Program-made: the position numbers and the translations under genes
Shown: positions 8,202 through 59,822 of the stretch, in pieces
Layout of the letters: every line of letters begins with the position of its first letter
Position numbering within the stretch: position 1 is the stretch's first letter
Source: a bacterium
GTDB lineage: Bacteria; Zhuqueibacterota; QNDG01; CAYUAG01
Assembly: GCA_046483025.1 (NCBI GenBank)
Contig: JAWODZ010000110.1
Span: 1-59,822 of the forward strand
Direction: 5' to 3'
Length of the DNA stretch: 59,822 bases
Notes under the pieces: model-generated
Databases searched by the model: none
What the model was told of the DNA's origin: nothing
The model's input: only the letters and a program-made list of their open reading frames with translations

Positions 8202-8237
8202 ATATATGAATAAAAATAAACTATCAGGGGGTTGATA

Positions 8238-17452: not shown

Positions 17453-17475
17453 TTTTATATAAAAGTTAAATATAA

Positions 17476-19920: not shown

Positions 19921-19925
19921 ATAAT

Positions 19926-20597: not shown

Positions 20598-20608
20598 TAG
20601 GATTACAA

Positions 20609-21979
20609 GTGAAGAAAAACAGTAAAAACATACTAGTTATTGATGATGAAGAGATGATCCGAGAATTATTAAAAGATACCTTTGAAAAAGAAAAATATAA
20701 TGTTGAAACTGCAGAAGATGGAAAACAAGCTTTTAAAATGATCCAGTCCAATGATTACAATCTTGTTATAACTGATATACGCCTCCCTGATATTAGTGGT
20801 ATGGAAATTCTTGAAAAAATTAAAGTTCAACATCCTGATATGGGAGTTATAATGATAACAGCCTATGGCTCCATAAAAAGTGCTGTTAAAGCTATGAAAG
20901 ATGGAGCGTTTGATTATATTGCTAAACCATTTGAGATAGATGAGATTAATATAGTTGTAGAAAAATATTTTGAATTTGAAAATTTGAAAGTTGAGAATAA
21001 ATATTTACGGTCTGAGCTGGATAAGAAATTTAACTTTAAAAATATTATTGGACACAGCTTACCGATGCAGGGAGTTTTTAAAACTATTGAAATGGTTGCT
21101 AAAAGCAGAGCAACAATATTAATTGAGGGTCCTAGTGGAACAGGAAAAGAACTCATTGCTCGATCAATACATTACAACAGTGACAGGAAAAATGGACCAT
21201 TTATTACCATAAACTGCGCTTCTTTACCTGAAAGCTTAGTAGAAAGTGAACTTTTCGGACATGAAAAGGGAGCTTTTACCGGTGCATATAAGACTAATAA
21301 AGGACGATTTGAAATGGCAGATGGGGGTTCTCTACTATTAGATGAAATCTCAGAAATTAGCCTTGGCCTTCAGGCTAAACTGTTACGTGTTTTGCAGGAG
21401 AAAGAAATTGAAAGAGTAGGAGGTGGAGAAGTCATCCCGGTTGATGTAAGAATTATTGCTACTACCAATAAGGACATAAGAAAAGAAGTTAAGGAAAAAA
21501 AATTCAGGGAAGATCTTTTCTATAGGTTAAATGTTGTTCCAATTAAAGTTCCTCGTATAACTGAGAGAAGAGATGATATTCCCATACTTATAAATCATTT
21601 TATCAAATTATATTGTCAGGAAAACAATTATCCTTTAAAGAAAATTTCTGAGAAAGCAATGAAAATTCTCATTAACAGAGACTGGCCGGGTAATGTAAGA
21701 GAAATAGAAAATTGTGTTGAGAGAGCTGTTGTATTATCCGGTCCCAAGTGTAAGGAATTGGAGTTAAAGCATTTTTCACTACAAGATCAATATATTCATG
21801 ATGAAACAAGTGATTTTTCAAAAGATATGACATTACGAGAGATAGAAAAAGAGATGATTTTACGAAAATTAAAAATGAAAGATGGTAACAGAACTGAAAC
21901 AGCTGAGAATTTAGGAATAAGCGTACGTACACTCCGTAATAAACTAAATGAATATCGTAAAGAAGGAATAGATGTTTAA
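20609..21979 (+). CDS. sigma-54-dependent response regulator (NtrC family: REC-AAA+-Fis HTH)
   Basis: 456 aa. Walker A GPSGTGKE, GAFTGA at nt 21269-21286, and the C-terminal HTH NRTETAENLGISVRTLRNKL. Confidence 0.92.
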   Translation: MKKNSKNILVIDDEEMIRELLKDTFEKEKYNVETAEDGKQAFKMIQSNDYNLVITDIRLPDISGMEILEKIKVQHPDMGVIMITAYGSIKSAVKAMKDGAFDYIAKPFEIDEINIVVEKYFEFENLKVENKYLRSELDKKFNFKNIIGHSLPMQGVFKTIEMVAKSRATILIEGPSGTGKELIARSIHYNSDRKNGPFITINCASLPESLVESELFGHEKGAFTGAYKTNKGRFEMADGGSLLLDEISEISLGLQAKLLRVLQEKEIERVGGGEVIPVDVRIIATTNKDIRKEVKEKKFREDLFYRLNVVPIKVPRITERRDDIPILINHFIKLYCQENNYPLKKISEKAMKILINRDWPGNVREIENCVERAVVLSGPKCKELELKHFSLQDQYIHDETSDFSKDMTLREIEKEMILRKLKMKDGNRTETAENLGISVRTLRNKLNEYRKEGIDV

Positions 21980-22111
21980 TTATAAAGCGGAAAATCTAAC
22001 CGTATTATATAGGAAAAGCTTGCCCTTTATTTTTTAATATTTAATAGATTTTTTTGAACTGCTATTACTTAATCTCTTAATAATCAACCTTTTATAAAAA
22101 TAATATTTTTG

Positions 22112-22126
22112 TGGCATAAATGTTGC
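22112..22126 (+). promoter_or_regulatory. sigma-54 (-24/-12) promoter candidate
   Basis: TGGCAT-aaatg-TTGC lies 55 nt upstream of the receiver gene at 22181 and directly downstream of the NtrC-type activator gene. Confidence 0.65.
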
Positions 22127-22180
22127 CTTTTAATAGATTAAGATTGCAAAATATAATAATTATCATAAACGGAGGGTACT

Positions 22181-22558
22181 ATGAAAAAGCTTAAATCCCT
22201 TTTATTTGTCGATGATGAGGAAGAAATCCTTGATATTTTGGTTGATTTATTCAAGGATGATGATTATCAATTGTACACAGCGACAAAAGCAGAAGAGGCA
22301 AGAGATATTATGGAAAAACATGAAGTAGATTTTGTATTATCAGATTTAAAACTTCCTGATGACTCAGGATCAGATTTGTTAACTGATATACGTAATAAAA
22401 ACCCCGAGACTATAAGAGTTCTCACATCTGGTTACCTTGATCTTAAGTTTGGAAATATCAGTGAGAATAAAGAAGATGGAACATTGTATCTTTCTAAACC
22501 GTGGGATCTTTTTACTTTAAAACAATTGGTTGAAGAAAGACTAGAAAAAAGAATATGA
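22181..22558 (+). CDS. single-domain response regulator (receiver)
   Basis: 125 aa with LLFVDDEEE, FVLSDLKLPD, LTSGY and SKPW. Confidence 0.85.
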   Translation: MKKLKSLLFVDDEEEILDILVDLFKDDDYQLYTATKAEEARDIMEKHEVDFVLSDLKLPDDSGSDLLTDIRNKNPETIRVLTSGYLDLKFGNISENKEDGTLYLSKPWDLFTLKQLVEERLEKRI

Positions 22559-23610
22559 AATCTTTAAAAAAAGTTTTATATATTGACAGTGATAATTCAC
22601 TGTGCAAAGTTGTAAAGAAAAATTTATCTGATAATTCATTTGATTGTATTACTGCAGAAAATGGAGAAGAGGGTCTTAAAAATATCTTACACAGCAAACC
22701 AGATATTATTTTTGTGGATAATTATTTATCTGATATGGACACAGAAATATTTATACAAAAAATCAAAGATCAATCCGTGTATAAAAATTTAAAAGATATC
22801 CCTTTGATTCTTTTAACTTCTAATGGGAAAATGAATAAATTACGATTAGATGAATTAGGATTCTGTTCTTATATTCACAAGCCATTTAACACTCAAGATT
22901 TAATAAATTTAATAGATGGAATATTACATTTTAACGTTTATGCACAAAATAAAAATATTAATCATAATAATGGTAGACAATTCCTGGAAAGTATTCTGGA
23001 AAGTTCAGTAGAATCAATTTTTACTACTAATAAAAAAGGTTATATTACCTATAGCAATAAAGCATGCCTACAGTTGTTGAAATACAGTTTCAAGGAATTT
23101 ATAGGTAAGAATATTTGCGAATTATTGAATAATGGATCTTCTGAATTATTACAAATATTAGACATTATTAACAAAGATGGTAAATTAACCGATTATAAAA
23201 CTTTTTTAATAGAAAAAACAAAAAAGAAAATTCCTGTTAGTCTTTTTCTTTCGCCAATGAAAGAAATCGATGGAGATATAATTGGTTATTTAGCTCTCAC
23301 CGTGCATCAAAATAATGATATTAATAAATCTTCTTCTCATAAATCAGAAAAATTAGCAACAATTCTGGAAACAGCAATTACTGTTAATCATGCAATAAAC
23401 AATCCTTTGGTACCGATACTTGGGCAAGCTCAATTTTTACTTCAGGATGAAAGAATAGTAGATGAAGACATACGGAAACGATTAAACATAATCATTAACA
23501 ACGCCTTAAGAATAAAAAATATAACCCAGAAATTGACACGAATTTCGAAACCAGTTTCAAAAGAGTATATCAAAGGCACTAAGATGCTTGATTTGGATGC
23601 CTCCATATAA
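22555..23610 (+). CDS. REC-PAS-DHp protein lacking a catalytic ATPase domain
   Basis: 351 aa. Receiver (VLYIDSD, IIFVDNYL, IHKPF), a PAS block, then the H-box-like VNHAINNPLVPILGQAQFLL. The protein ends about 60 aa later with no HATPase domain. It overlaps the upstream gene by 4 nt. Confidence 0.7.
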   Translation: MKSLKKVLYIDSDNSLCKVVKKNLSDNSFDCITAENGEEGLKNILHSKPDIIFVDNYLSDMDTEIFIQKIKDQSVYKNLKDIPLILLTSNGKMNKLRLDELGFCSYIHKPFNTQDLINLIDGILHFNVYAQNKNINHNNGRQFLESILESSVESIFTTNKKGYITYSNKACLQLLKYSFKEFIGKNICELLNNGSSELLQILDIINKDGKLTDYKTFLIEKTKKKIPVSLFLSPMKEIDGDIIGYLALTVHQNNDINKSSSHKSEKLATILETAITVNHAINNPLVPILGQAQFLLQDERIVDEDIRKRLNIIINNALRIKNITQKLTRISKPVSKEYIKGTKMLDLDASI

Positions 23611-26024: not shown

Positions 26025-26399
26025 ATGGAAAAAGAAGTGATGATCGTTGATGATGATCCATCGGTTCTGCAGACATGTCAGAAAATTATCAGCAGGAATA
26101 ATATTAAAGTCCGAACAGCAAAAAGTGGTCAGGAATGTCTCAAGGAACTTGAAAAAGGATTTAAAGGAATAATTTTAATGGATATTATAATGCCGGAAAT
26201 GGACGGATGGGATACAATAGAAGAAATTGTCAATCGCGGATATATAAAAAATGTGATTATAACTATGTTAACAGGTAAGGATCAGCCCGGTAAAAAAATG
26301 GATCATTTAAAAGAATATGTATTGGATTATATTCGGAAACCTTTTGATGCACAGGACTTAATAAATCTTGTTAAACGATACTTATCATATATAGAATAA
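26025..26399 (+). CDS. single-domain response regulator (receiver)
   Basis: 124 aa with VMIVDDDPS, IILMDIIMPEMDG, MLTGK and IRKPF. Confidence 0.85.
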   Translation: MEKEVMIVDDDPSVLQTCQKIISRNNIKVRTAKSGQECLKELEKGFKGIILMDIIMPEMDGWDTIEEIVNRGYIKNVIITMLTGKDQPGKKMDHLKEYVLDYIRKPFDAQDLINLVKRYLSYIE

Positions 26400-26408
26400 T
26401 ATTCCTTT

Positions 26409-26975
26409 ATGGCATTATCAAATATTGCAATTATCGGATCATCGGCAGGAGGCCCCCGTATATTAAAAGAAATATTTACTGAACTTCCTGTTTTGAATGG
26501 ATCAATTATTGTTATCCAGCATATGCCGGAATTTGTAAATAAATCTTTTACAGAAGAATTGAATAGTTTAACTGAAATGCAGGTAGTCATTCCTGATTAC
26601 GGACAGGAACTTGCTTCTGGTACAGTATATATAGCACCGAGTGAATACCATTGTGAATTGATCAATAATTCAAAAATAAGATTATACAAAGGACAAAAAG
26701 TAAATTTTGTGTGTCCGTCTATTGATGTAACCATGAAATCAGTTGTTAAAAGACCATATATGAATATTATTGGCATTATTCTAACCGGCATGGGTAGTGA
26801 TGGGAAAGAAGGTATCAGACATATTAACAGTATTTATGGAACAACCATAGCCCAGGATAAATATTCAAGTATTATATTTGGTATGCCCAGAGAGGCCATT
26901 GAAACCGGATGTGTTGATTATGTTTTAAATCCTGAACAGATAAAAGAGAAGTTGATTGAGTTGATGTTATATTAA
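26409..26975 (+). CDS. stand-alone CheB-type protein-glutamate methylesterase catalytic domain
   Basis: 188 aa with Ser-His-Asp triad contexts IIGSSAGGPR, VIQHMPEFV and LTGMGSDGKEG. The start is 9 nt after the receiver gene. Confidence 0.85.
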   Translation: MALSNIAIIGSSAGGPRILKEIFTELPVLNGSIIVIQHMPEFVNKSFTEELNSLTEMQVVIPDYGQELASGTVYIAPSEYHCELINNSKIRLYKGQKVNFVCPSIDVTMKSVVKRPYMNIIGIILTGMGSDGKEGIRHINSIYGTTIAQDKYSSIIFGMPREAIETGCVDYVLNPEQIKEKLIELMLY

Positions 26976-27083
26976 TAGGTATTTTTTTGAAAAACTGTTA
27001 AGATGGAATCAGGAACTTATAAAGATTTCTCATATTAACCTTCTTACAGCGTACTGCATTTAAATAATAATTGGAGTTTAGTA

Positions 27084-27389
27084 ATGTTTAAAATAACGGA
27101 TTATATCCCAAAAAATAAACTAAACGAAATATGTCAAAAATATCATATAATAAAAATTTCGCTTTTTGGTTCTGCTTTACACGGCGATTTAAAACCAGAT
27201 AGTGATATTGATCTTTTGGTAGAATTTAAAAAGGGGATGACACCCGGACTTATTACCTTATGTGGTATAGAAAACGAATTGACAGCTATGATTGGTCGAA
27301 AGGTTGATTTACGTACGGTTGATGATTTAAGTCGATATTTCAAAGATGAAGTAGTCAACAATTCCGAGGTTCAATATGTCGCCGCATGA
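27084..27389 (+). CDS. mntA: MNT-type nucleotidyltransferase antitoxin (MntA, type VII TA)
   Basis: 101 aa with LFGSALHGDLKPDSDIDLLVEF (GSx10SDxDLLV). It overlaps the HEPN gene by 14 nt. Confidence 0.8.
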   Translation: MFKITDYIPKNKLNEICQKYHIIKISLFGSALHGDLKPDSDIDLLVEFKKGMTPGLITLCGIENELTAMIGRKVDLRTVDDLSRYFKDEVVNNSEVQYVAA

Positions 27390-27720
27390 TTTAAACAGGT
27401 TAAAACATATGCTAGACGCTGCATTGGAAGCACAAGAGTTTATGAAAGATGTTACCCAGGTCTCATTAGCCGAGGACAGAAAAACAATCCAAGCAGTGAT
27501 TCGTTCATTGGAGCTTATCGGAGAGGCAGCAGCAAAAATTTCAAATGAGTGCAAAGAATCTCAACCTGAAATTCCCTGGAAAGATATTATTGGTATGCGT
27601 AACTGGCTCATTCATGCCTATTTTGACATTGATTATGATCATATTTGGAATACAATCCATAAGGATTTACCGGTTTTAATCCCGAAATTGAAAAAACTAT
27701 TGAAAGAAGTTGGAAGTTAA
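27376..27720 (+). CDS. hepT: HEPN/DUF86 toxin (HepT)
   Basis: 114 aa. The R-x4-H HEPN motif is present in MRNWLIHAYFDIDYDHIW. Confidence 0.8.
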   Translation: MSPHDLNRLKHMLDAALEAQEFMKDVTQVSLAEDRKTIQAVIRSLELIGEAAAKISNECKESQPEIPWKDIIGMRNWLIHAYFDIDYDHIWNTIHKDLPVLIPKLKKLLKEVGS

Positions 27721-27740
27721 GTATAAAAACCCGCAAAAGT

Positions 27741-27826
27741 GGTAATCCAGGGATGAAGATTGCAATATGGATCCCCGACAGACTTGTGCCCGCATGTTTT
27801 AGGCGGGTAAGCATTCGGTTATGACA
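27741..27826. repeat. hairpin repeat unit, copy A (right-half type, long-loop variant)
   Basis: ggtaatccagg...ggatccccgacagacttgtgcccgcatgttttaggcgggtaagcattcggttatgaca. It is near-identical in layout to copy D. Confidence 0.75.
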
Positions 27827-27975
27827 GGAAAAAAAGAAATTTATTTCAGTCATTTTAATTATATCGCAACTCAGGTTCGGTATCGGGATCGCAATTGAGT
27901 TAAATCACGGATACACCCCATTGGATAAATTTGTTTCTAAATATAAATTTTGAGACAGTTTAAAACATCCTACAG

Positions 27976-28037
27976 GGTGAACACGAATTGCACACAGATC
28001 ATTTTTATTCCGTGAACATCTGTGTTAATCAGTGGCT
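27976..28037. repeat. CACAGAT-type hairpin repeat related to the 4981-5076 inverted repeat
   Basis: acacagat/atctgtgt form an 8-bp stem. ttattccgtgaacatctgtg resembles ttaatccgtgtatatctgtg at 5055-5074. Confidence 0.5.
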
Positions 28038-28085
28038 TATTATTAGAACATTTTAAGACACAAGTTGCTGTGTGAAGATGCATCA

Positions 28086-36056: not shown

Positions 36057-37022
36057 ATGAATATTGATATAAAAAAAAAATCATCTGATAACAAAGATAT
36101 TATTCTTGTTGTTGATGATGAAGCTAATAATCGTTTACTATTAAAAACATATCTTACTTCTGAGGGATATAACATAGATATGGCTTCAAACGGTGTTGAT
36201 GCTATCAAAAAGGTTAATGAACTATCACCCAGCATTATTATTCTTGATGTTGTACTGCCGGATATGGATGGCTTTCATATTTGCAGAAAGTTGAAATCAT
36301 CCAAAAATACCAATTTCATTCCTGTTATTTTAGTGACTGCTTTACGTGGAGATGAAGAGAGAATCAAGGGGACCACTGCGGGAGCTGATGATTTTATTAC
36401 AAAACCCTATAACAGAGTAGAGTTAATAACCAGAGTTAAATCATTAATACGTATTAAACACCTTCATAAATCCCTGGAACAAAAATATCATGAATTAGAG
36501 ATTGTTAAAGAAAAATTAAAAAAATTAGCAGTCACTGATGGATTAACCGGATTATTTAATTACAGAGCCTTCAAAAATCAGATTCACTATGAAATCATAC
36601 GATCTAAACGTTTTAATTTACCAGTATCTCTTTTGATGATAGATATTGATCATTTTAAAAGGTATAATGATACTTTCGGACATCCCAAGGGTGATAAAGT
36701 CCTTAAACAATTTTCTGAATTATTAACTGTAAATCTCAGAGAAGTAGATACTATAGCACGATATGGGGGTGAAGAGTTTGCGATAATCCTTCCCGGTACC
36801 AATAAAAAGGCTTCCTTTATTGTTGCTGAAAAGTTACGTAAATTAATAGAAGAATATGATTTTCCATTATCAGAAAAATTACCTGATAAAAAATTAACCA
36901 TCAGTATAGGGATAGCCAGTTTTCCTATTGATGTAGAGGACGAAGAAAATTTAATTTTATCAGCTGATAAGGCTCTTTATAAGGCAAAAAACACTGGTAG
37001 AAACAGATCAGAAACTATTTAA
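36057..37022 (+). CDS. response regulator-diguanylate cyclase (REC-GGDEF, PleD-like)
   Basis: 321 aa. Receiver (ILVVDDEANN, IILDVVLPDMDG, ITKPY). GGDEF active site RYGGEEF, preceded by an RxxD I-site (REVD). Confidence 0.9.
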   Translation: MNIDIKKKSSDNKDIILVVDDEANNRLLLKTYLTSEGYNIDMASNGVDAIKKVNELSPSIIILDVVLPDMDGFHICRKLKSSKNTNFIPVILVTALRGDEERIKGTTAGADDFITKPYNRVELITRVKSLIRIKHLHKSLEQKYHELEIVKEKLKKLAVTDGLTGLFNYRAFKNQIHYEIIRSKRFNLPVSLLMIDIDHFKRYNDTFGHPKGDKVLKQFSELLTVNLREVDTIARYGGEEFAIILPGTNKKASFIVAEKLRKLIEEYDFPLSEKLPDKKLTISIGIASFPIDVEDEENLILSADKALYKAKNTGRNRSETI

Positions 37023-37048: not shown

Positions 37049-38509
37049 TTGAATTTATTTGCTAAAATAAAATATAACAAGATAACCTTTATTAAAATAT
37101 GGTTACTCACCCTGATATTTATATGGTTGGTTATATTTTTATTTATGTTCATAGTAGATGTAAATCTAATATCTGATGCTACAACACAAAATTCTTATAC
37201 GATATTAGCTCACCTTGATTTAAAGCAATGTTTTGCATTATTTACCATTTTTTTAATAATATCATTTTTAATTACTTATTCTTATTTAACGATATTAAGT
37301 AATTCTCTGAATAAACTGATCGTTAATTCAACAGAAATTGCCAGAGGTAATTTTAATAGTAATAAAATAACTACTGGAAACAAATATTTAGACAGAATTC
37401 AAAAAATGTTTACCTATATGGCAGATGAGATGAAAAGAATAAAAAATATTGATTTATCCGGAATAATCAATTCAAAAAATAAAATTGAAGCAATTCTGCG
37501 TAATATTGTGGATGGAGTAATTGTAACCGATACTCAATATAGAATTTTAATGGTTAATATCGTAGCTGAATCTTTATTCGGTTTTACCGAGGAAAAGGCC
37601 TCTAATAAAAATTTAAAAGATTTAATTAAAAATAAGCAAATTTTGAATCTTTTTAAACAAGTGAGAGATGGAAAACAAACAGATAATGTAACTTTTGATT
37701 TTCGAACAAAAAATATTTCTACAAAGAAATATTTACAGGCTTCTGCATCCAGAATCTATAGTGAAGATAATGAATTCATTGGAATTGTTTCTGTTATTAG
37801 AGATATTACCAAGGAATATGTAGCAGATAAAATGAAGTCTGAACTTGTAACCATGGTAGCACATGAATTAAAATCTCCCTTGACATCTATTTATGGTTTC
37901 AGTGATCTACTTCGTGATTTAAAGGTCAGGAATACTAAGGTCAAAGATTATTCAAATATCATACTAAATGAAACTTCGCGTTTAGTTAAACTGGTTAATA
38001 AATTTCTTGATCTGTCAAAATTGGAAGAAGGTAAAATACAAATACAAATTCATCCATTTAATATTGAACAACTTATTGACAAGATTATCACTTCTTATAT
38101 GTCTACTGCCCAACAGAAAAATATGCAAATAGGAAAGATTTTTTCTACGGAAATCTGTTTAGCATATGGTGACCAGCAGTTAATTGAACAAGTAGTACAA
38201 AATTTATTATCAAATGCAATCAAATACAGTCCTGCCGGATCTGATATAAATATAAAATTACAACAAAAGGAAAATATAATTACAGTCAGTGTAATTGATA
38301 ATGGCTATGGGATACCAGAGGATGCTATTGATAAAATATTCAGAAAGTTCTATCGGGTTAATAAAGCAGATGAAGAAAGCGAAGGTAGTTCCGGTTTAGG
38401 CCTTGCTTTGACCAAAGAAATCTTAGATCAGCATAATTCTCAACTTTCAGTAAAAAGTAAATTAGGAAAGGGATCAGTATTTTCTTTTACTCTACAATGT
38501 GCAGTTTAA
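37049..38509 (+). CDS. membrane sensor histidine kinase (TM-PAS-HisKA-HATPase)
   Basis: 486 aa with a TTG start and two N-terminal TM segments. H-box VAHELKSPLTSIYGF, N-box LLSNAIKYS, G1 DNGYGI, G2 GLGLAL. Confidence 0.88.
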   Translation: MNLFAKIKYNKITFIKIWLLTLIFIWLVIFLFMFIVDVNLISDATTQNSYTILAHLDLKQCFALFTIFLIISFLITYSYLTILSNSLNKLIVNSTEIARGNFNSNKITTGNKYLDRIQKMFTYMADEMKRIKNIDLSGIINSKNKIEAILRNIVDGVIVTDTQYRILMVNIVAESLFGFTEEKASNKNLKDLIKNKQILNLFKQVRDGKQTDNVTFDFRTKNISTKKYLQASASRIYSEDNEFIGIVSVIRDITKEYVADKMKSELVTMVAHELKSPLTSIYGFSDLLRDLKVRNTKVKDYSNIILNETSRLVKLVNKFLDLSKLEEGKIQIQIHPFNIEQLIDKIITSYMSTAQQKNMQIGKIFSTEICLAYGDQQLIEQVVQNLLSNAIKYSPAGSDINIKLQQKENIITVSVIDNGYGIPEDAIDKIFRKFYRVNKADEESEGSSGLGLALTKEILDQHNSQLSVKSKLGKGSVFSFTLQCAV

Positions 38510-38533: not shown

Positions 38534-40456
38534 ATGAAGAGAAAGAAAATGGATAATTTTTTTAGTGAAAAAAAATTTTTAGTGATTGAATCTGCAGACA
38601 AAATATCAAATCAACTGAAAGAAATTTTGCAAAATACGGATTCCAATATTATAACTATTTCATCAGGCATAAAAGCTATAGAAGAAATTCCCTGTATACA
38701 CCCTGATATCATTATTTCTGACTATGTAACTGATGATATTGTGGGGGCTGAAGTTTATAAAAAATTTATACACAGTAAATCATTAGCTGAGTATCATAAT
38801 ATTCCTTTCATTATAATTTCAGACGATGAGACCCGTCAGAAATACAGACAGGAATTTTATAATTTAGGAATAAGAGGGTGGTTCAGCTATTTTTCCGATC
38901 CTAAAAGATTTAGAGAATGTCTGGAAAATTTTACTGTTGCTGATGAAACAGTAAGAAAAAACAAAGAGCTTAGTCAGGAAATTAAGCGGTCAGAATATAG
39001 ATATAGAGATTTACTTGAAAATGCAAACGATTTTATTTTTACTCTTGATCAAAGTGGAAAATTTGTCTATTTAAATAACCGCTTTAAGCCCTTAACTGGT
39101 TTTAAAAAGAAAGAATGGTTACAAAAAGACTTTTCAGAATTAATAGTAGAAAAAGATCGCATTCGAGCTAAAAAGAATTATCAGCTTGTCCATCAGGGAA
39201 GGGCAAGGATTTTCCAGGCACAAATTAAAAGCAATATTTCCGATTGTTTTATTCTCTCATTTAACATTACTCCTATTTTCGAACACGGATCCATAGTGGG
39301 TTCAATGGGAATTGCCAGAGATGTAACCGAACAAAAGATGATGGAAAATGAAATTTTAGAATTAAAAAATTTCAATGAGAGTATTATTCAAAGTATGGAA
39401 GCCGGGCTTTTAACTGTAGATCTTAATGGTTTTATCACTTCACTTAATACAGGTGCTGAACGCATTCTTGGATGGAAAGCAAAGGAAGTATTGGGGAAAA
39501 AGATAAAATCTGTACTTGTTCCAGATGATGTTGATATACTTCTTATGAGCTCAGAAAAGCCGGGATCATTGCCTTACAGTAGAGAAACTAAATTAACTAT
39601 AAAATCTGGAGACAAAATCTCCATAGGTTTTACAACCACTGATCGTATTGACAATCGTAATGAAAAGGTAGGTACCATAGTTTCTTTTAGGGATATTTCT
39701 GAATTAAAACAGATGCAGAGCGAAGTAAAGAGAATGGAAAGACTGGCTTCACTGGGTATCTTGGCTTCAGGAATTGCACATGAAATAAAAAATCCTTTAG
39801 CTGGAATTAAGAGTTTAAGTCAAACCTGTAAAGAAGAATTTGAATCAGGTGATTCCAGGTTGGAATATTTATCCCGGATTATCAATCAAGTTAACAGATT
39901 AGATGAACTGTTAAAGGCAATTGTAGCTTTTGCCCGTCCCAAACCTCCGGATAGAAAATCATATGATATAAAAAAGGTAATTCATGAAGTTGTTAACTTG
40001 ATTAATAAAAAATTAACAACGAATAACATTAAATATATCGAAGATATGGATGATAATCTTCCTATCGTGATTATTGATCCCCAACAAATACAGCAAGTAT
40101 TTTTAAATCTAATTCTTAATGCAATTGATGCGGTTAATAAAAATGGAGTTATTACAGTATCAGCAAAACCGGTAAAATTTTCTGTACCAAAGTTAATAAA
40201 AAGATCAGATAAGTGGATTAAACAAGATTCATTTGTTCAAATAAATATCACTGATACTGGAAAAGGTATTCCACCTGAAAGATTAGAATCAATTTTCGAT
40301 CCTTTTTTTACCACAAAATCGGATGGTTTAGGAATGGGTCTTTCTATAGTGTATAGAATTATTGAGGATCATCATGGGGATATTGATGTGAAAAGTAAAA
40401 TTAGCAAAGGGACTACGTTTAGTATAACAATACCTGAAGGAGAGTCAGATGAGTAA
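38534..40456 (+). CDS. cytoplasmic sensor histidine kinase with N-terminal receiver-like domain and two PAS domains (NtrB/AtoS-like)
   Basis: 640 aa. H-box GIAHEIKNPLAGIKSL, N-box LILNAIDA, G1 DTGKGI, G2 GMGLSI. The N-terminal domain is receiver-like, but the usual KPF lysine context is not evident. Confidence 0.85.
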   Translation: MKRKKMDNFFSEKKFLVIESADKISNQLKEILQNTDSNIITISSGIKAIEEIPCIHPDIIISDYVTDDIVGAEVYKKFIHSKSLAEYHNIPFIIISDDETRQKYRQEFYNLGIRGWFSYFSDPKRFRECLENFTVADETVRKNKELSQEIKRSEYRYRDLLENANDFIFTLDQSGKFVYLNNRFKPLTGFKKKEWLQKDFSELIVEKDRIRAKKNYQLVHQGRARIFQAQIKSNISDCFILSFNITPIFEHGSIVGSMGIARDVTEQKMMENEILELKNFNESIIQSMEAGLLTVDLNGFITSLNTGAERILGWKAKEVLGKKIKSVLVPDDVDILLMSSEKPGSLPYSRETKLTIKSGDKISIGFTTTDRIDNRNEKVGTIVSFRDISELKQMQSEVKRMERLASLGILASGIAHEIKNPLAGIKSLSQTCKEEFESGDSRLEYLSRIINQVNRLDELLKAIVAFARPKPPDRKSYDIKKVIHEVVNLINKKLTTNNIKYIEDMDDNLPIVIIDPQQIQQVFLNLILNAIDAVNKNGVITVSAKPVKFSVPKLIKRSDKWIKQDSFVQINITDTGKGIPPERLESIFDPFFTTKSDGLGMGLSIVYRIIEDHHGDIDVKSKISKGTTFSITIPEGESDE

Positions 40457-41816
40457 ACCAAATATATTGATTATTGAAGATAACGAAGATATGATCTTCA
40501 CCTTAACCAAGACTTTAAAGAAAGAGGGATATAATGTTCTCTCCTCAATTGAGGGAAAGAAAGGGTTGTCAATTTTAAAAAATAAAATAATTGATCTTGT
40601 TATCTTAGATATTAAATTACCCGATATTAATGGAATTGAATTATTAGATAAAATAAAGGATATCGATCCAGATATTTTAGTGCTTATGATGACAGCAATG
40701 ACAGATGCAAAACCTGCAATTGAAGCTATGAAAAAAGGTGCATATGATTATTTGGTTAAACCATTTGAACTTGATGAATTAAAATTGAATGTTAAAAAAA
40801 TATTAGAAACACACAAACTGAAAATGGAAGTAAGCAGATTACGAAAAGAACATAAAGAACATTTTCCCGAGAATACAATATATGGTGATAGCCAAGCAAT
40901 AGAGGATATTCGGAATTTAATTAACATTGTTGCTAAAACTCCCAAAACATCTGTTTTAATATTAGGGGAAAGCGGTACTGGCAAAGAACTTGTTGCTAAT
41001 GCTATTCATTTTCTGAGCAATAGAGCATCGCAACCTTTTATTAAATTGAATTGTAGTGCAATTCCGGAAAATTTGTTAGAGAGTGAATTATTTGGTCATG
41101 AAAAAGGTGCTTTTACCGATGCACGTACCACGAAAAAAGGTCTTTTTGAATTGGCCCATGGTGGAACAATATTTTTAGATGAGATTTCAAGTATGAAACT
41201 TACCTTACAACCAAAGATTCTCCGGGTTATTGAATCTCAAATTTTTCGTAGAATTGGCGGTACCACAGATATTAATATTGATGTACGGGTAATTGCTGCT
41301 TCAAATACTGATTTACGCAGGCTTGTTAATCAGCAGGAATTCAGAGATGATTTATATTATAGATTAAAAGTTTTGGAAATTAAATTACCCCCTTTACGAG
41401 AACGAAAAGAAGATATTCTGCTGTTGGCGAAATATTATATTCAATTATATAATAAAGAGTTCAATAAAGATATTCAGAAAATTGATAAAAAAACTGAAAA
41501 AATGCTCCATAATTATTCCTGGCCTGGTAATGTGAGAGAATTAAAAAATGTAATTGAAAGAAGTGTGATACTTTGTAATGATGAAATTCTGACTTCAGAT
41601 TATTTACCAATGGAACTCCAGGAGGAAAAATCCCCTGTTGTAAATAAATCATTTGGGGAAGTATCTTTACAGGAAATGGAAAAACAGCATATACTTCATA
41701 TTTTAAAAACAACAGATGGCAATAAATCGAAAGCATCCCGAATTCTAAACATATCACGCTCAACCTTACGAGAAAAACTTAAAAGCTATAAAATTTCAGA
41801 GAGTGACTTAAAATAA
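40449..41816 (+). CDS. sigma-54-dependent response regulator (NtrC/AtoC family) with a variant GAFTDA loop
   Basis: 455 aa. Walker A GESGTGKE, GAFTDA at nt 41106-41123, and the HTH NKSKASRILNISRSTLREKL. It overlaps the kinase gene by 8 nt. Confidence 0.9.
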   Translation: MSKPNILIIEDNEDMIFTLTKTLKKEGYNVLSSIEGKKGLSILKNKIIDLVILDIKLPDINGIELLDKIKDIDPDILVLMMTAMTDAKPAIEAMKKGAYDYLVKPFELDELKLNVKKILETHKLKMEVSRLRKEHKEHFPENTIYGDSQAIEDIRNLINIVAKTPKTSVLILGESGTGKELVANAIHFLSNRASQPFIKLNCSAIPENLLESELFGHEKGAFTDARTTKKGLFELAHGGTIFLDEISSMKLTLQPKILRVIESQIFRRIGGTTDINIDVRVIAASNTDLRRLVNQQEFRDDLYYRLKVLEIKLPPLRERKEDILLLAKYYIQLYNKEFNKDIQKIDKKTEKMLHNYSWPGNVRELKNVIERSVILCNDEILTSDYLPMELQEEKSPVVNKSFGEVSLQEMEKQHILHILKTTDGNKSKASRILNISRSTLREKLKSYKISESDLK

Positions 41817-41961: not shown

Positions 41962-41976
41962 TGGTACAATATTTGC
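41962..41976 (+). promoter_or_regulatory. sigma-54 (-24/-12) promoter candidate
   Basis: TGGTAC-aatat-TTGC lies 44 nt upstream of the receiver gene at 42020 and directly downstream of the NtrC-type activator. Confidence 0.6.
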
Positions 41977-42019
41977 CAAAATTAATTATAGGAATATAAT
42001 TATCTATTAAGAGTAGACA

Positions 42020-42418
42020 ATGCAAAATAAAAATGAATATAAAAGAATTTTAATTGTAGATGATGAAGAAGATCTTACCTGGAGTATATCACGAAGACTA
42101 TCCCGTGATAATGACAATATTGAAGTACTTAGCGCAAATTCCGGCAAAGGTGCACTGGAGATTCTTTCCCGAAATGAAATTGATCTCCTCATAACAGATC
42201 TTAGAATGCCTGAAATTAATGGATGGGAGCTTTTAGATACAATTAAAGAAAAATATCCAAATACATTAGTGATTATCATGACCGCTCATGGTTCCATTGA
42301 AGTTATTGACGCTTTAAACCGCTGGGGAAAAGCAGGGTATATTGAAAAACCCTTTGATATGAATGATCTTAGAAAATTAGTATATGCTTTTCTAAAAGAA
42401 AAAGATAAATCAAAATAA
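42020..42418 (+). CDS. CheY-like single-domain response regulator
   Basis: 132 aa with ILIVDDEED, LLITDLRMPEINGWE, MTAHGS and IEKPF. Confidence 0.88.
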   Translation: MQNKNEYKRILIVDDEEDLTWSISRRLSRDNDNIEVLSANSGKGALEILSRNEIDLLITDLRMPEINGWELLDTIKEKYPNTLVIIMTAHGSIEVIDALNRWGKAGYIEKPFDMNDLRKLVYAFLKEKDKSK

Positions 42419-42430
42419 AGAGTCTGTTAA

Positions 42431-43957
42431 ATGAAAGAAGAAAATCTGGATAATTCTACTGAAATAAGTCCTTATAATACTCAAATAAAAGTTTTAGGAA
42501 TAGGCGGGTCAGGAAATAATACCATCAATCATCTGATGAAAAAAAAGTTAAAGGGCCTGGAAACGGTTGCAATCAATACGGATGGACAACATTTAGTGGA
42601 TATAAATTCAAATAAAAAAATATTGATTGGGAAAAATATAACAGCAGGTTTAGGTTCTGGTGGAGACCCAGAACTAGGTGAACGAGCTGTCCGAGAATCA
42701 AAACAGGAAATTATCGATATCATACAGGAAACCGATTTATTATTTATAACCTGTGGATTCGGAGGCGGAACCGGGACAGGTGCCTCTCCGGTGGTTGCTA
42801 AATTAGCCAGAGAAGAAGGCATTTTAACGGTAGCAATTGTCACCATGCCTTTTGCTGAAGAAGGTATTATCAGATGGGAAAATGCAAAGATAGGTCTTGA
42901 AAAACTTAAAAAATTTGTTGATACTTTAATAGTGCTTGAAAATAATAAATTAATTGATCTTTATTCGGAATTAACTTTAAAAAAAGCCTTTGAAGCTTCA
43001 GATGACATTTTAATTAATGCACTGGAAGGCCTTTCCAGTATGGTTTTAAAAAGAGGATTAGTGAATCTTGACTTTGCAGATATAAGTATTGTTATGAAGG
43101 ATGGCCCTAATGCCTTTATCGGGTTAGGGGAAAGTGATTCGGAAAACAAAATACATGAGGCAATTAAAAGAGCCATAACCCATCCTATGATGGAACAGGA
43201 TATTTCAGGGGCCCAAAGTGCCTTGATTCATATAACTGGCGGTCCTAGCCTCAAATTAAAAGAATCCAGACAAATAATAAAAATTATTACACAAAAGTTA
43301 GATCCTAATGCAAGAATTATTTGGGGAGCTACAATTCAAAAAAATTTACGCAACACGGTAAAAGTACTGCTTATTGTGAGCGGACTACAAAAAGAAAAAG
43401 AGATCGAAGAGAGAGTGAGTGAGGCTGAGTCTGAAGATACCATAATAAATGAGTTTGATGAATCCTCAATAATTACAAATGATGAAGATATGTATGATAT
43501 AAAAGAATCAATACTTGATTCAGATATTGAAGAAGATTCAGAAGAAAAAAGTCCCAAGAAAATTAAACAGTCCGGATTAATTTTTTATAAAATATTCAAA
43601 GAAGAAGCAGCAGGTGATCTACAACGGTTTGATAGAGCTATACAGTTGTTAAGGGAAGATCCTAAAAACCGGAGAGGAGTACTTGAGGCTCGTCAGGCTT
43701 GTAAGCTTTTACATGCATCTGCTGAAATGTTTGGGTTTGATGAAACAGCTCAGCTACTTGTTGCTATTGAAACAATATTATCCCGAGTGAGAAGCAGGGA
43801 AATGAAAATTACCAAAAAAATTATTGATTCCATAACCTTAGCCATGGAAATGGTTGTTGATTTAATAGAAAATAAGACAGATGGTATGGGTGAGACCGGA
43901 TATATTGTTGACAGATTAAATGAATTAAAATCTGAACAACTTAATACTTATAAGTGA
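42431..43957 (+). CDS. FtsZ-family tubulin-like GTPase fused to a C-terminal CheA-P1-like HPt domain
   Basis: 508 aa. FtsZ hallmarks: IKVLGIGGSGNN, INTDGQHL, GLGSGGDPELG, tubulin signature GFGGGTGTGASPVVA, T7 loop NLDFADI and the FtsZ C-subdomain. An acidic E/D/S-rich linker follows. Residues 385-508 or so (nt 43583-43954) align by eye with CheA P1, and a His is retained at nt 43712-43714. Confidence 0.8.
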   Translation: MKEENLDNSTEISPYNTQIKVLGIGGSGNNTINHLMKKKLKGLETVAINTDGQHLVDINSNKKILIGKNITAGLGSGGDPELGERAVRESKQEIIDIIQETDLLFITCGFGGGTGTGASPVVAKLAREEGILTVAIVTMPFAEEGIIRWENAKIGLEKLKKFVDTLIVLENNKLIDLYSELTLKKAFEASDDILINALEGLSSMVLKRGLVNLDFADISIVMKDGPNAFIGLGESDSENKIHEAIKRAITHPMMEQDISGAQSALIHITGGPSLKLKESRQIIKIITQKLDPNARIIWGATIQKNLRNTVKVLLIVSGLQKEKEIEERVSEAESEDTIINEFDESSIITNDEDMYDIKESILDSDIEEDSEEKSPKKIKQSGLIFYKIFKEEAAGDLQRFDRAIQLLREDPKNRRGVLEARQACKLLHASAEMFGFDETAQLLVAIETILSRVRSREMKITKKIIDSITLAMEMVVDLIENKTDGMGETGYIVDRLNELKSEQLNTYK

Positions 43958-44017: not shown

Positions 44018-44091
44018 GGGCGATTAGCTCAGGTGGTTAGAGTGCTTGCTTGACATGCAAGAGGTCACTGGTTCAAGTCCAGTATCGCCCA
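44018..44091 (+). tRNA. tRNA-Val (anticodon GAC)
   Basis: 74-nt cloverleaf. Acceptor GGGCGAT/ATCGCCC, D stem GCTC/GAGT, anticodon stem CTTGC/GCAAG with loop TTGACAT, T arm ACTGG-TTCAAGT-CCAGT. CCA is not encoded. Confidence 0.9.
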
Positions 44092-44143
44092 CTATGTAGA
44101 ATTACATTTTTTAGTTAAAGCAGTTAAAGGAATAAATAATTAT

Positions 44144-50601: not shown

Positions 50602-50880
50602 ATGGATATAGAAAAATTTGAAATCCTTGAACAAAAAATTTTAAAACTTATTACACGTTTAAGTGAATTAGAAATGGAGAATAATGATTTAAAACAAAAA
50701 TGTAAACAATTGCTAGCAAAAATTGATGATAAGGAAAATATGATTCAACAGTTAAAAGTTAATAATAAAACGAGTATTCAAATGCAAAACGAAATTGAAA
50801 ACTATAAAAATAATGAAAATAAAGTAAAATCAAAAGTTGAAAATTTACTCATTAAATTAAAAGAGTTTGATGAGTTTTAA
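50602..50880 (+). CDS. zapB: ZapB-like coiled-coil cell-division protein
   Basis: 92-aa coiled coil. The N-terminus FEILEQKILKLITRLSELEMENNDLKQK resembles ZapB, and the gene sits directly upstream of zapA. Confidence 0.5.
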   Translation: MDIEKFEILEQKILKLITRLSELEMENNDLKQKCKQLLAKIDDKENMIQQLKVNNKTSIQMQNEIENYKNNENKVKSKVENLLIKLKEFDEF

Positions 50881-50941
50881 TGAATATGCAATAATTATTT
50901 CAGGTGATAAAAGAGATAATATCATTTTAAGTTAGAATACA

Positions 50942-51241
50942 ATGACTGATAATATGAAAACAATAAAAATAAGAATTTTTGGAAGTGAATATATAATTCG
51001 GAGTGAGGAAAAAACTGAAAGAATTAAAGAAGTAGCCAGTTATGTTGATAAAAAAATTCGTGAAATTGATAATCAGGTTCGTGTTGACTCTTCTTTGAAA
51101 GTTACAATTCTGGCTTGTATTAATATTACTGGTGAGTATTTTGCTGAAAAGGAAAAAAACGAGAAGCTTCGAATTAAGCTGCAGGAAAAAATGAATAAAA
51201 TTAATTCATTATTAGATAAAAAATTATCAGAAACAAAATAA
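50942..51241 (+). CDS. zapA: cell division protein ZapA
   Basis: 99 aa. IRIFGSEYIIRSEE...ASYVDKKIREI...TILACINITGEYF fits the ZapA pattern. Confidence 0.72.
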   Translation: MTDNMKTIKIRIFGSEYIIRSEEKTERIKEVASYVDKKIREIDNQVRVDSSLKVTILACINITGEYFAEKEKNEKLRIKLQEKMNKINSLLDKKLSETK

Positions 51242-56101: not shown

Positions 56102-57778
56102 TCATCTAAGATATAAGCAGGTTTGAATTGCTGAATTATCTTTCTGAATAAGCTTTAAAATATAAATTCCGGAGGCAAGTCTATCCGGTTTCCATTTTTC
56201 TTCATGAATACCTGATTCCACATATTCTTTCCCTAATTGATCAACAAGCTCTCCTTTTATATTGTATACATCAATCTTTATAAAACCAGGTGTATGTACT
56301 GAATATTTGAACATGGTAGAACTGTTAAAGGGATTGGGAAACGATGGGAATAACTTTATTGTATGTGGATAATGAGATTTGTCATCAAAAATATTGGTCT
56401 GAATATGTGCAATCTGGATTGAATCTCCGTCACTGAGGAAATGCAGTTTTCCGCCAATAATACCGGGATAGTTACTATTCTGCCCTTTAGCAAATCCCAT
56501 GTGTGTTACTGTATGGGAGTCTAATATATAAGTTAGTCCCTTTACTTTAAGCCAGCCTTCAGAATTAATAATAACTTCACTGTTAACATCCAGATACAAT
56601 GCCATAAATCCGGGATGAGTGGCAATTCCATACATACCGCCAATTAACCGATTTTCAAAATAATCATTATTTTGCCATAATTTTGGGATTATTACAGTCT
56701 GCGGAACTGTTTTTGTGCCTTCACGCTGTCCTAAATTGCCATACCAGGCATTAAGTTCATTTCCGGTCAGTTCTGTAATAACAATTTCACCTGAATCCGC
56801 CGTTGCTGCTTCAGAACCTTTTAAGATAACTTTACGTAACTGTGGTTCCGGAAGTGTATCAGATACACTAATGAGTCCTTGTCCGGGGGTTATCAGTGTT
56901 CGGTTGCGGAGATCATAAAGAGTACCATGTATGAGCTGATCAAAAGCTATATGGGTAAAATGTACCGGTTTGTGTGCCGTACATTCAATTTCTGATTCGT
57001 CAGTTTTATAAAGAATAGTAACTGTACCTTCACCATAACACATTGCGGTTGTATCGGATTCTATGCACAGAGCAGTATTATCAGCAACCCCAATACCAAT
57101 TATGTTTTTTTCACTGTGATCCTGAATCCTGCGAGCCAGCATTGGTATTAAACGCCCCAATCTTCCCCGGGAATGAAAATGAGAATCTGTTATTGCATCA
57201 GGTATTAGAGGCAGAAAATGATCAGACAAATGAACATCAGTATGATATGGATTATACGCTGCATCTTCAGGGTGACTTGTACCGTAACGAGCATCAAAAT
57301 CAACCATCCCCATAACTGCACATCCTGCACTGGTTCCGCCAACTGCTCCTCCCCTATCAAACACCTTCTGAATTGCTTCTTCAATTAATGTTCCCTCCCA
57401 TACACGAACATAATCATACTGATCGCCTCCTTCTATCCATATTCCGGATGCAGTGAGTAATTGATTGTAAATAGTTGAGTCATTAGCCTCAGCAGTAGTC
57501 TGGATACGAATACTGGTACTGGATGGATCTGCTCCGAAACTAATAAAAGTTTCAGCATAACTAGTAGCGACATCATCTACATCAATATTAATGATTTTTC
57601 CGGAATCAGCCTGCTGCACAAACCAGATGAAAGGTTCATCTGCCCAGCTTTTACGGTCATTTCCTCCGCCCATGACGAGAATTGATCCTCTTCCCATGAT
57701 TGTGCTGTTTAATACTATAATAAACAAAAACTTAATAACGATTATGCTAAATTTTTGAAAATTCATGAAAATCCTCAT
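56102..57778 (-). CDS. exported peptidase S51 / cyanophycinase-like protein with T9SS C-terminal sorting domain
   Basis: 558 aa with a signal peptide. S51-type motifs IWIEGGDQYDY and GGAVGGTSAGCAVMG. The C-terminus FPNPFNSSTMFKY...SGIYILKL is a T9SS CTD pattern. Confidence 0.68.
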   Translation of the reverse strand: MRIFMNFQKFSIIVIKFLFIIVLNSTIMGRGSILVMGGGNDRKSWADEPFIWFVQQADSGKIINIDVDDVATSYAETFISFGADPSSTSIRIQTTAEANDSTIYNQLLTASGIWIEGGDQYDYVRVWEGTLIEEAIQKVFDRGGAVGGTSAGCAVMGMVDFDARYGTSHPEDAAYNPYHTDVHLSDHFLPLIPDAITDSHFHSRGRLGRLIPMLARRIQDHSEKNIIGIGVADNTALCIESDTTAMCYGEGTVTILYKTDESEIECTAHKPVHFTHIAFDQLIHGTLYDLRNRTLITPGQGLISVSDTLPEPQLRKVILKGSEAATADSGEIVITELTGNELNAWYGNLGQREGTKTVPQTVIIPKLWQNNDYFENRLIGGMYGIATHPGFMALYLDVNSEVIINSEGWLKVKGLTYILDSHTVTHMGFAKGQNSNYPGIIGGKLHFLSDGDSIQIAHIQTNIFDDKSHYPHTIKLFPSFPNPFNSSTMFKYSVHTPGFIKIDVYNIKGELVDQLGKEYVESGIHEEKWKPDRLASGIYILKLIQKDNSAIQTCLYLR

Positions 57779-59285: not shown

Positions 59286-59822
59286 TTACTTGATAAATAA
59301 CATCTTGCAGCTGAAAAATTCTTGCCCTACATCTAATCGATAGATATAGATACCGGAAGCGACAGGTTTGGAATACATGTCTGTTCCATCCCATGTGACC
59401 TGATACGTACCAGCAGACAACCTTCCGCTCTTCAGTGATTTAACTAATCTTCCTTTGAGATCGAATACTTTCAGTTCAATATCAGATTGTCTGGTCAGAT
59501 CAAACCTGATAGTGGTAGTTGGATTAAAAGGATTGGGATAGTTTGAATAGAGATTAAATTCTGCAGGTATGTTTGTATCATCCTGAGGTTTCAAACCAGT
59601 TGTTGTAGTGAGGATTTCAGGCATCCGAACCACACCATTTTCAAATGTTGCCACCCAGAGAGCTCCGGCATTGATTTTAACCAATTCAAGATTATCTGAG
59701 GGTAACTGTCCGCTGGTAGAAGCATTGGTATAGGTCGCATAACTCAGATCTGGTTTTATCTCAAGTAAACCGCCTCCGTTCGTCGCACACCAGATATGAC
59801 CGTTGCAGTCTGAGGCAAGGTC
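59286..59822 (-). CDS. partial (5'-truncated by the window end) beta-propeller-repeat protein with T9SS C-terminal sorting domain
   Basis: The frame stays open to nt 59822 (...DLASDCNGHIWCATNGGGLLEIKPDLSY...). The TTG at 59684 in the ORF track is internal. The CTD reads YPNPFNPTTTIRFDL...SGIYIYRL. Confidence 0.75.
   Translation of the reverse strand, partial: DLASDCNGHIWCATNGGGLLEIKPDLSYATYTNASTSGQLPSDNLELVKINAGALWVATFENGVVRMPEILTTTTGLKPQDDTNIPAEFNLYSNYPNPFNPTTTIRFDLTRQSDIELKVFDLKGRLVKSLKSGRLSAGTYQVTWDGTDMYSKPVASGIYIYRLDVGQEFFSCKMLFIK

Follow-up and report, generated by a model that had tools for sequence, protein, structure and literature searches.

An FtsZ with an archaeal FtsZ1-type core and a CheA-P1-like domain lacking the phospho-acceptor histidine, encoded in a bacterial two-component and sigma-54 locus

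Can a tubulin-family polymer be placed under the control of bacterial two-component signalling, and does phosphate itself pass through the polymerising protein? This question is raised by a gene in a 59,822-nucleotide stretch of DNA (contig JAWODZ010000110.1 of GenBank assembly GCA_046483025.1, from a bacterium assigned to the Zhuqueibacterota), which is referred to here as the window. The gene occupies 42431..43957 on the forward strand and is a single uninterrupted open reading frame of 508 amino acids plus a stop codon. An earlier note, made from the sequence alone, described its product as an FtsZ-family GTPase fused to a histidine phosphotransfer (HPt) domain of the CheA P1 type, with the phospho-accepting histidine retained, and proposed that the FtsZ could be controlled by phosphotransfer or by receiver docking, or could scaffold a phosphorelay. 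The data presented below uphold the fusion and argue against the phosphorelay; the P1-like domain has lost the canonical histidine, and the protein is termed FtsZ-pHPt (pseudo-HPt) in the following.

The FtsZ hallmarks quoted in the earlier note were all located in the protein. Pfam assigned Tubulin to residues 18-178 (E=3.6e-46) and FtsZ_C to residues 228-320 (E=1.1e-28), which delimit a polymerising GTPase core at 42482..43390 on the forward strand. The 508-amino-acid protein scored 375 bits against the FtsZ equivalog model TIGR00065, for which the cut-off is 295, and the only other NCBIfam model it matched was one for CheA, in the P1 part at the N-terminus of that model. The tubulin G-box, GGGTG(T/S)G, is present as GFGGGTGTG. 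The T7 synergy loop (NxDxxD), which is required for GTP hydrolysis in the FtsZ polymer, is present as NLDFAD and is invariant across the family alignment. A full-length AlphaFold (AF2) model of the protein was divided into three parts, a confident core (residues 19-317), a disordered linker (residues 323-377) and a confident helical bundle (residues 380-507).

The helical bundle (43568..43951, forward strand) was assigned by sequence search, AF2, Foldseek and Pfam Hpt. A single-sequence phmmer search of PDB sequences with the last 135 amino acids recovered Thermotoga maritima CheA P1 (2ld6) at E=1e-8 in an ungapped alignment, and a profile of 36 family members recovered the same domain at E=8.7e-14, with the CheA P1 domains of Salmonella and E. 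coli at ~1e-8. AlphaFold, supplied with the family alignment, predicted five helices with a pLDDT of 91.7. When the predicted domain was compared with the PDB by Foldseek the top matches were all CheA P1 structures (TM 0.69-0.79), the P1-CheY complexes 2lp4, 3kyj and 3kyi were among the matches, and generic HPt proteins scored far more poorly. Pfam Hpt reached 25.3 bits on the isolated domain, above the cut-off of 24.6, and matched 28/36 family members, but gave only 22 bits (residues 386-475) in the full protein. When 1.84 billion representative proteins were searched with a profile of the P1-like domain, 6,683 matches were returned; the best of them that were not fusions were proteins of great length in which 3-15 HPt stretches could be counted, as in ChpA-like multi-HPt CheA kinases. 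These searches, together with the predicted fold, indicate that the C-terminal domain is a genuine CheA-P1/HPt homologue, as the earlier comparison with Thermotoga CheA P1 had suggested.

The same architecture was found well beyond the window. More than 100 full-length homologues with 50-91% identity and a length of 503-540 amino acids, from NCBI, JGI, ENA and Logan assemblies, were placed in group 1, and two more distant sets of ~520-610 amino acids, groups 2 and 3, keep the FtsZ-P1 arrangement; in all, >200 proteins from independent assemblies carry the fusion, at 40-91% identity. The relatives come from records labelled mostly 'bacterium', with some labelled 'KSB1', 'Cloacimonetes', 'I07' and 'Calditrichaeota', and databases annotate the proteins as 'cell division protein FtsZ', some records with a precomputed Hpt match. 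No account of the family came up when the full-text literature was searched for FtsZ together with HPt, with KSB1 or Caldithrix, or with interacting receivers, consistent with the lack of precedent stated in the earlier note, and the FtsZ-P1 architecture is implicit in databases but uncharacterised. The neighbouring threonyl-tRNA synthetase, ThrS, shows a like divergence on the same contigs (FtsZ 56% and ThrS 59% identity on a 749-kb contig; ThrS 59-60% on the recurring contigs), which indicates that group 1 has been inherited vertically within a deep, uncultured lineage. A seemingly unfused member of group 3, P0427 (384 amino acids, locus L017, 9000-9600), was found to be a frameshifted copy in which the P1-like domain runs on in another reading frame, and it was rejected as a natural split gene.

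The capacity of the domain to accept phosphate was judged from the residue at the canonical position. The earlier note had taken the codon at 43712-43714 for the phospho-accepting histidine and had supposed that about three residues, the L-K-G normally following it, were deleted. This codon does encode a histidine, His428; however, HMMER pairwise, MAFFT and profile alignments all place the CheA phospho-His opposite Lys425 (43703..43705, forward strand) and His428 opposite the CheA lysine at +3. As there are no gaps in the HMMER alignment with CheA P1, the supposed deletion does not exist. Columns were counted in 204 fusion proteins aligned to one hidden Markov model, with n=102 for group 1 and n=102 for groups 2 and 3 together. 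The canonical column contained K96 and R4 in group 1 (K or R in 100/102) and S55, T13, I9, A8 and V7 in groups 2 and 3, and histidine was found there in 1/204 proteins. The +3 column, occupied by His428 in the query, contained L33, H30, Q13, Y9 and F7 in group 1 and Y47 and Q35 in groups 2 and 3, with histidine in 33/204. The +4 column, which is Gly in CheA, was small throughout, with A95, S6 and T1 in group 1 (A/S/T in 102/102) and S46, N43 and G10 in groups 2 and 3 (S/N/G in 99/102). No histidine column was conserved across the family in the P1-like domain, in either the family alignments or the 204-protein counts, and the HxxKG motif is absent from the domain of the query. The query retains the glutamate that partners the histidine in CheA, and 79/102 group-1 proteins have E or D at that position. 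Orthologues with the same gene order have Leu, Gln or Tyr at the position of His428, so that phosphotransfer cannot be the function that is conserved. The domain is accordingly a pseudo-HPt, through which phosphotransfer is very unlikely. A true HPt domain with a retained histidine and a three-residue deletion was ruled out by the ungapped HMMER alignment and the column counts. A separate helix-A column, at Q403 of the query ('RAIQLLR'), is His in 80/117 family members and Gln in the query, and it lies off the canonical phospho-acceptor helix.

Accounts of FtsZ regulation normally centre on small proteins that bind a short peptide at its C-terminus, and the region between the core and the bundle was inspected together with the C-terminus. 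The linker (residues 323-377; 43397..43561, forward strand) has an AF2 pLDDT below 50, and 22/55 of its residues are D or E, in agreement with the acidic linker of the earlier note. It contains a conserved motif, DIKESI (residues 356-361; 43496..43513, forward strand), which forms a short helix (residues 356-362) in the AF2 model. The pattern [FY]D[IV]K[DE][STA][IL] was found in 98/102 group-1 proteins, the query version being YDIKESI, and FDIKE was found in the linker of 26/85 group-3 proteins. A DIPxFL-type bacterial peptide, which would bind FtsA, ZipA or SepF, is absent from the C-terminus, as had been noted; the last part of the protein is the P1-like domain, followed by a tail that is not conserved, and there is no Pro-containing peptide. 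The archaeal SepF-binding GID peptide is also absent from the query protein. In archaeal FtsZ1 a C-terminal GID motif binds archaeal SepF (Pende et al. 2021), and the unfused archaeal neighbours in our sequence comparison end in ...EE[DE]YGIDFV; groups 2 and 3 end in another conserved peptide, of the VKEAVKYFDKLF type. DIKESI lies at a distance from the core similar to that of the archaeal GID peptide, without the GID; a relic of that peptide was considered and set aside as speculation, as only the position is similar and the GID signature is absent. Within the bundle, the segment GETGYIVDRL corresponds to a loop and helix E, and a GETGY-type motif was present in 102/102 group-1 proteins.

The core itself has its closest affinity with archaea, a feature that the earlier note missed. 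The best PDB match of the core was Methanocaldococcus jannaschii FtsZ1 (351 bits), and about fifteen bacterial FtsZs scored 223-269 bits. By BLASTP the query was 51% identical to M. jannaschii FtsZ1 and 37-38% identical to E. coli FtsZ and to a dcw-linked Bacteroidales FtsZ, and group 2 was 57-60% identical to M. jannaschii FtsZ1. A search with a group-2 core returned fused KSB1 and Calditrichaeota proteins intermingled with unfused FtsZs of 350-385 amino acids labelled 'archaeon' or 'Nanoarchaeia' (63-72% identity), and one of these unfused proteins, P0404, lies in a classical archaeal ftsZ1-secE-nusG-rpl11 locus. A bootstrapped tree of 67 cores and 340 columns, built by neighbour joining only and with a small bacterial outgroup of three sequences, one of them entered by hand, separated the three canonical bacterial FtsZs from all others with 100% bootstrap. 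Groups 2 and 3 nested beside archaeal FtsZ1, and group 1 came out on the archaeal side as a clade with a long branch and 100% support. These comparisons indicate that the FtsZ core is of the archaeal FtsZ1 type, within the limits of a test with three outgroup sequences. The window is bacterial and of the FCB type, containing sigma-54 activators, IF3, RNase Y, ZapA and sorting domains of the type IX secretion system (T9SS). The T9SS C-terminal sorting domains are on the reverse strand, at 56102-57778 (an S51 peptidase) and 59286-59684 (FlgD-Ig), and are consistent with a host from the FCB superphylum. A published survey reported no notable transfer of ftsZ from archaea to bacteria (Santana-Molina et al. 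2023, PMC9871819), and an archaeal-FtsZ1-like core in clearly bacterial genomes bears on the movement of ftsZ between the domains.

The gene is also embedded in a conserved kinase, NtrC and sigma-54 module, which as a unit was likewise missed earlier. Immediately upstream on the forward strand is a CheY-like single-domain receiver (REC) of 132 amino acids (42020..42418; Pfam Response_reg 2.3e-26), a candidate docking partner for the P1-like domain. Six orthologues share its DD, D (TDLRMP), T (MTAH) and K (KPF), and all phospho-acceptor residues are kept. The 12-nt gap between this gene and ftsZ and the -24/-12 promoter ahead of them, both described in the earlier note, are present, and the promoter, TGGTAC-N5-TTGC, is located at 41962..41976 on the forward strand, 44 nt upstream of the REC start codon. 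The strict motif TGG[CT]A[CT]-N5-TTGC occurred exactly once per locus in 9/9 related loci, where 0.05 would be expected by chance, and each time it preceded ftsZ in the operon of that gene; the site is the sole invariant block of the intergenic alignment. A strong sigma-70-like match, TTGCCA-16-TATAAT (11/12), at 41973-42000 overlaps the -12 element and was discarded as a conserved element, as it is not kept outside close relatives.

Upstream of the promoter and on the same strand are four signalling genes. A REC-GGDEF response regulator (diguanylate cyclase, 36057..37022; Pfam GGDEF 2.5e-48, Response_reg 1.9e-28) heads the module, and its position is kept in L001, L004, L011 and L012. It is followed by a PAS histidine kinase (37049..38509; Pfam HisKA, HATPase_c and PAS), the position of which is conserved in group-1, -2 and -3 loci, and by a REC-PAS-PAS histidine kinase with an N-terminal receiver (38534..40456; Pfam), the position of which is conserved in relatives. 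The last is an NtrC-family sigma-54 enhancer-binding protein with REC, AAA+ and Fis-type helix-turn-helix domains (40449..41816; Pfam Sigma54_activat 4e-68, Response_reg and HTH_8), whose AtoC/NtrC-like NCBIfam matches were all under the equivalog cut-offs. An NtrC-type activator directly upstream of the FtsZ operon, together with histidine kinases, was found in 8/9 related loci, and a REC-containing gene was found in the FtsZ operon in 9/9. The group-1 order, in 6/6 loci, was gcvP, REC-GGDEF, PAS histidine kinase, (REC-)PAS histidine kinase, NtrC-type activator, single REC and FtsZ-pHPt, with the REC directly upstream of FtsZ at gaps of 0-36 nt. The rpoN gene was not found in the 59.8-kb window.

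Downstream of FtsZ-pHPt the six group-1 loci share thrS-infC-rpmI-rplT-pheST-zapB-zapA-rny. A KSB1-labelled relative keeps thrS...pheT-zapB-zapA-rny-folD with no module upstream of thrS, and the module therefore behaves as an insertable unit. A ZapB-like gene and zapA lie directly after pheT both in the window (50602-51241) and in the KSB1-labelled relative without the module (L016, 16535-17157); the proximity of zapA and zapB is consequently no evidence about FtsZ-pHPt, and it was rejected as a sign of a division role. The loci of groups 2 and 3 keep a histidine kinase, a REC histidine kinase and an NtrC-type activator upstream of the FtsZ operon. The operon itself (L003, L004, L013, L014 and L017) encodes a PATAN-REC protein, an SLT lytic transglycosylase, a protein of 590-780 amino acids, FtsZ-pHPt and a further protein of 223-395 amino acids, and in the three group-2 loci it includes a gene for a ParA/MinD-like ATPase. 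The 590-780- and 223-395-amino-acid proteins had no Pfam or PDB match. This operon looks like a self-contained, uncharacterised FtsZ-based machine.

The reading that we put forward, as a leading but tentative one, is of a sigma-54-gated, polymerisation-competent FtsZ of archaeal FtsZ1 ancestry within a bacterial signalling module, in which the His-less P1 domain docks a receiver. The adjacent histidine kinases would phosphorylate the adjacent NtrC-family activator; the architecture of the module is seen directly, while the phosphorylation partners are those that we infer. The activator would then fire the conserved sigma-54 promoter that precedes REC and FtsZ, the two genes of the operon. The pseudo-HPt, which has kept the small-residue docking face of helix B, would act as an adaptor binding the co-transcribed CheY-like receiver. 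Binding would probably depend on the phosphorylation state of the receiver, with Lys425 facing its acidic or phosphorylated pocket, and would couple the assembly, bundling or placement of the filament to kinase activity. With the phospho-acceptor histidine lost the domain cannot relay phosphate, and a receiver-docking role is suggested because P1 domains are natural receiver binders. Control by receiver docking, one of the possibilities raised in the earlier note, would be the most economical account.

Several observations weigh against this account. The canonical histidine position carries Lys in group 1 but Ser/Thr or an aliphatic residue in groups 2 and 3, and this difference makes a single phospho-sensing mechanism less than obvious. 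The sigma-70-like promoter that overlaps the -12 element may give basal expression. One fusion event would be parsimonious, but the fused groups are not monophyletic in the neighbour-joining tree, and P1-like domains from different groups resemble one another barely more than they resemble true CheA HPt domains. This account would place a canonical dcw-linked ftsZ elsewhere in the genomes of the lineage, beyond the contigs read; the seemingly universal presence of FtsZ-pHPt in the lineage, with conservation like that of ThrS, would fit an essential housekeeping role just as well.

The alternatives differ in what they ask of the P1-like bundle. If the protein were a true phosphorelay component, as the earlier note supposed, His428 or another histidine would be phosphorylated by a hybrid kinase or a receiver and would either control FtsZ or pass the phosphate on. 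The query does have a solvent-side histidine one helical turn from the canonical position, the glutamate partner is kept in it and mostly in group 1, and kinases and receivers are adjacent; even so, the column counts given above, the L, Q, Y and F found at +3 in syntenic orthologues, the Gln of the query in the helix-A column that is often His, and the absent HxxKG make this alternative very improbable. A different possibility is that the bundle is an adaptor for a partner other than a receiver, such as a kinase catalytic domain, a membrane anchor, or itself in a self-association that bundles filaments, the receiver gene being merely a co-regulated neighbour. CheA P1 binds the P4 domain of the kinase too, and the neighbouring kinase is probably membrane-bound. 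The strongest conservation in group 1 is in helix D, the following loop and helix E (LAMEMVVDL...DGxGETGYIVDRL), not on the receiver-facing face of helices A and B, and groups 2 and 3 have extra conserved peptides and partner genes of unknown function. We nevertheless consider a non-receiver partner improbable, given the receiver gene in every operon, its place directly upstream of FtsZ in group 1 and the small +4 residue retained on helix B. An assembly chimera, or a frameshift joining ftsZ to an unrelated HPt gene, could appeal to the unusual architecture and to the gene-splitting frameshift of P0427. The earlier note had itself raised this concern; it is of negligible probability, as the reading frame is single and uninterrupted across the join and the conservation of the fusion in independent assemblies rules it out.

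A further question is whether FtsZ-pHPt is the only FtsZ of its host. No dcw gene was found in the 59.8-kb window, which agrees with the earlier observation of a non-dcw context, or in the six group-1 loci, and no second ftsZ was found in the window or in the +/-10-kb flanks of related loci, the scope being these contigs. When contigs were scanned for ftsZ and dcw loci, nothing came back beyond two close relatives and a pair of ftsZ loci from Bacteroidales. The non-dcw site and the lack of either a bacterial or an archaeal anchor peptide make it more likely, though by no means certain, that FtsZ-pHPt is a second, conditionally expressed FtsZ and not the housekeeping one; this is the weakest point that we infer. 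Indirect support comes from the dedicated sigma-54 control, from the specialised operons of groups 2 and 3 and from a published dcw survey, in which loss of ftsA and ftsZ from dcw is listed only for Chlamydiae and Planctomycetes and the FCB superphylum is not listed. In a few bacteria, extra ftsZ copies outside dcw in conserved loci have been read as subfunctionalisation (Santana-Molina et al. 2023, PMC9871819). The opposing explanation is that this is the sole housekeeping division FtsZ, an archaeal type that replaced the bacterial one or is the clade's own, in which the P1-like domain took over from the C-terminal peptide as the hub to which anchors and regulators are recruited and the two-component and sigma-54 module tunes division to conditions. 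Its apparent universality in the lineage and its divergence in step with ThrS would be expected of such a gene, as would the intact GTPase motifs, the score above the TIGR00065 equivalog cut-off, the setting among housekeeping genes and the failure to find a second ftsZ nearby. Against these stand the location outside dcw without anchor-binding peptides, a dedicated sigma-54 promoter as the only conserved one, the KSB1-labelled genome that retains the thrS...zapA neighbourhood without the module, the operons of groups 2 and 3 with PATAN-REC, SLT, unknown genes and, in three group-2 loci, the ParA-like ATPase, and the dcw survey. We regard a sole FtsZ as unlikely, although it is the most serious of the alternatives.

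A bolder proposal can be framed, in which an archaeal FtsZ1 entered a KSB1/Calditrichota-like ancestor and was joined there to a decommissioned P1 domain of CheA, giving a filament that directly reads receiver phosphorylation; in its strongest version this would be the sole FtsZ, dividing the cell without anchoring of the FtsA, ZipA or SepF type. This is rather unlikely and is offered as speculation.

Other features of the window are recorded here for completeness. A second signalling cluster, at 14984-23610, resembles the one beside ftsZ and encodes two hybrid kinases (PAS, histidine kinase, REC), a single REC, a REC-PAS-HisKA protein, a HisKA-only protein of 223 amino acids and a sigma-54 activator of the NtrC type; the strict sigma-54 motif was matched at 14917 and 22112. 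A tRNA-Val (GAC) identified by ARAGORN and Rfam lies at 44018-44092, between ftsZ and thrS, and no terminator-like site was found between it and ftsZ. An AbiEi antitoxin and an AbiEii nucleotidyltransferase toxin, a type IV toxin-antitoxin or abortive-infection pair, are encoded at 8232-9928, next to large genes for glycoside hydrolases. At 26025-26975 a gene for a single-domain REC precedes one for a CheB methylesterase domain that stands alone, with no other chemotaxis gene in the window, and the ~1.1 kb downstream of CheB (26976-28064) contains no open reading frame of at least 120 amino acids and no Rfam match.

In comparison with known systems, the C-terminal domain is nearest to CheA P1 (T. 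maritima 1tqg and 2ld6, Salmonella 1i5n, and the Rhodobacter sphaeroides CheA3 P1-CheY6 complex 3kyj), with which it shares sequence homology, a five-helix topology (TM 0.7-0.8), the small residue at His+4 and, in much of the family, the glutamate partner. It differs from CheA P1 in having Lys425 for the phospho-His, in lacking HxxKG and the kinase modules P2-P5, and in its place at the C-terminus of an FtsZ, whereas in CheA the P1 domain is at the N-terminus of the kinase. Pseudo-HPt proteins lacking the conserved histidine are listed in surveys of plant two-component systems. Plant AHP6 is a stand-alone eukaryotic pseudo-HPt of the generic HPt family, thought to bind partners without relaying phosphate. 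Both AHP6 and the query domain have the HPt fold with the phospho-acceptor lost, but the query domain is of the CheA P1 type and is fused to a cytoskeletal GTPase.

The core is closest to archaeal FtsZ1 (M. jannaschii 1fsz and 1w58, and the FtsZ1 of DPANN or 'archaeon' records), with which the query shares 51% identity and groups 2 and 3 share 57-72%; it differs in its bacterial host, in a genomic context other than ftsZ-secE-nusG-rpl11, in lacking the GID peptide and in carrying the extra P1-like domain. Canonical bacterial FtsZ has the same fold and GTPase motifs, passes TIGR00065 as the query does, and is accompanied by ZapA and ZapB, genes for which are in the same genome as the query; the query, in contrast, is only 37-38% identical to it, is not dcw-linked, has no DIPxFL-type peptide, is preceded by a sigma-54 promoter and has an extra domain. 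The non-dcw ftsZ copies described by Santana-Molina et al. (2023, PMC9871819) also lie in conserved loci, but no HPt fusion was reported among them and the lineage named there was Bipolaricaulota. PatA (PATAN-REC) of Anabaena contacts proteins of the division machinery and makes the complex that they form less stable (Valladares et al. 2020, PMC7380572), and groups 2 and 3 have a PATAN-REC gene in the FtsZ operon; the target in Anabaena is, however, the canonical divisome with no HPt-like domain, and the operon in the window has a plain single-domain REC. The novelty of FtsZ-pHPt lies in its archaeal ancestry and its decommissioned P1 domain, and is less dramatic than an FtsZ wired into a phosphorelay. 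This protein lacks the usual peptide and has a folded signalling domain at its end, and in hundreds of uncultured genomes its gene goes together with kinases, a receiver and a sigma-54 switch. Docking of the receiver on the His-less P1 domain, if it takes place, would connect two-component signalling physically and directly to a filament of the tubulin family, and would show that a bacterium, too, can reuse a pseudo-HPt domain as an adaptor.

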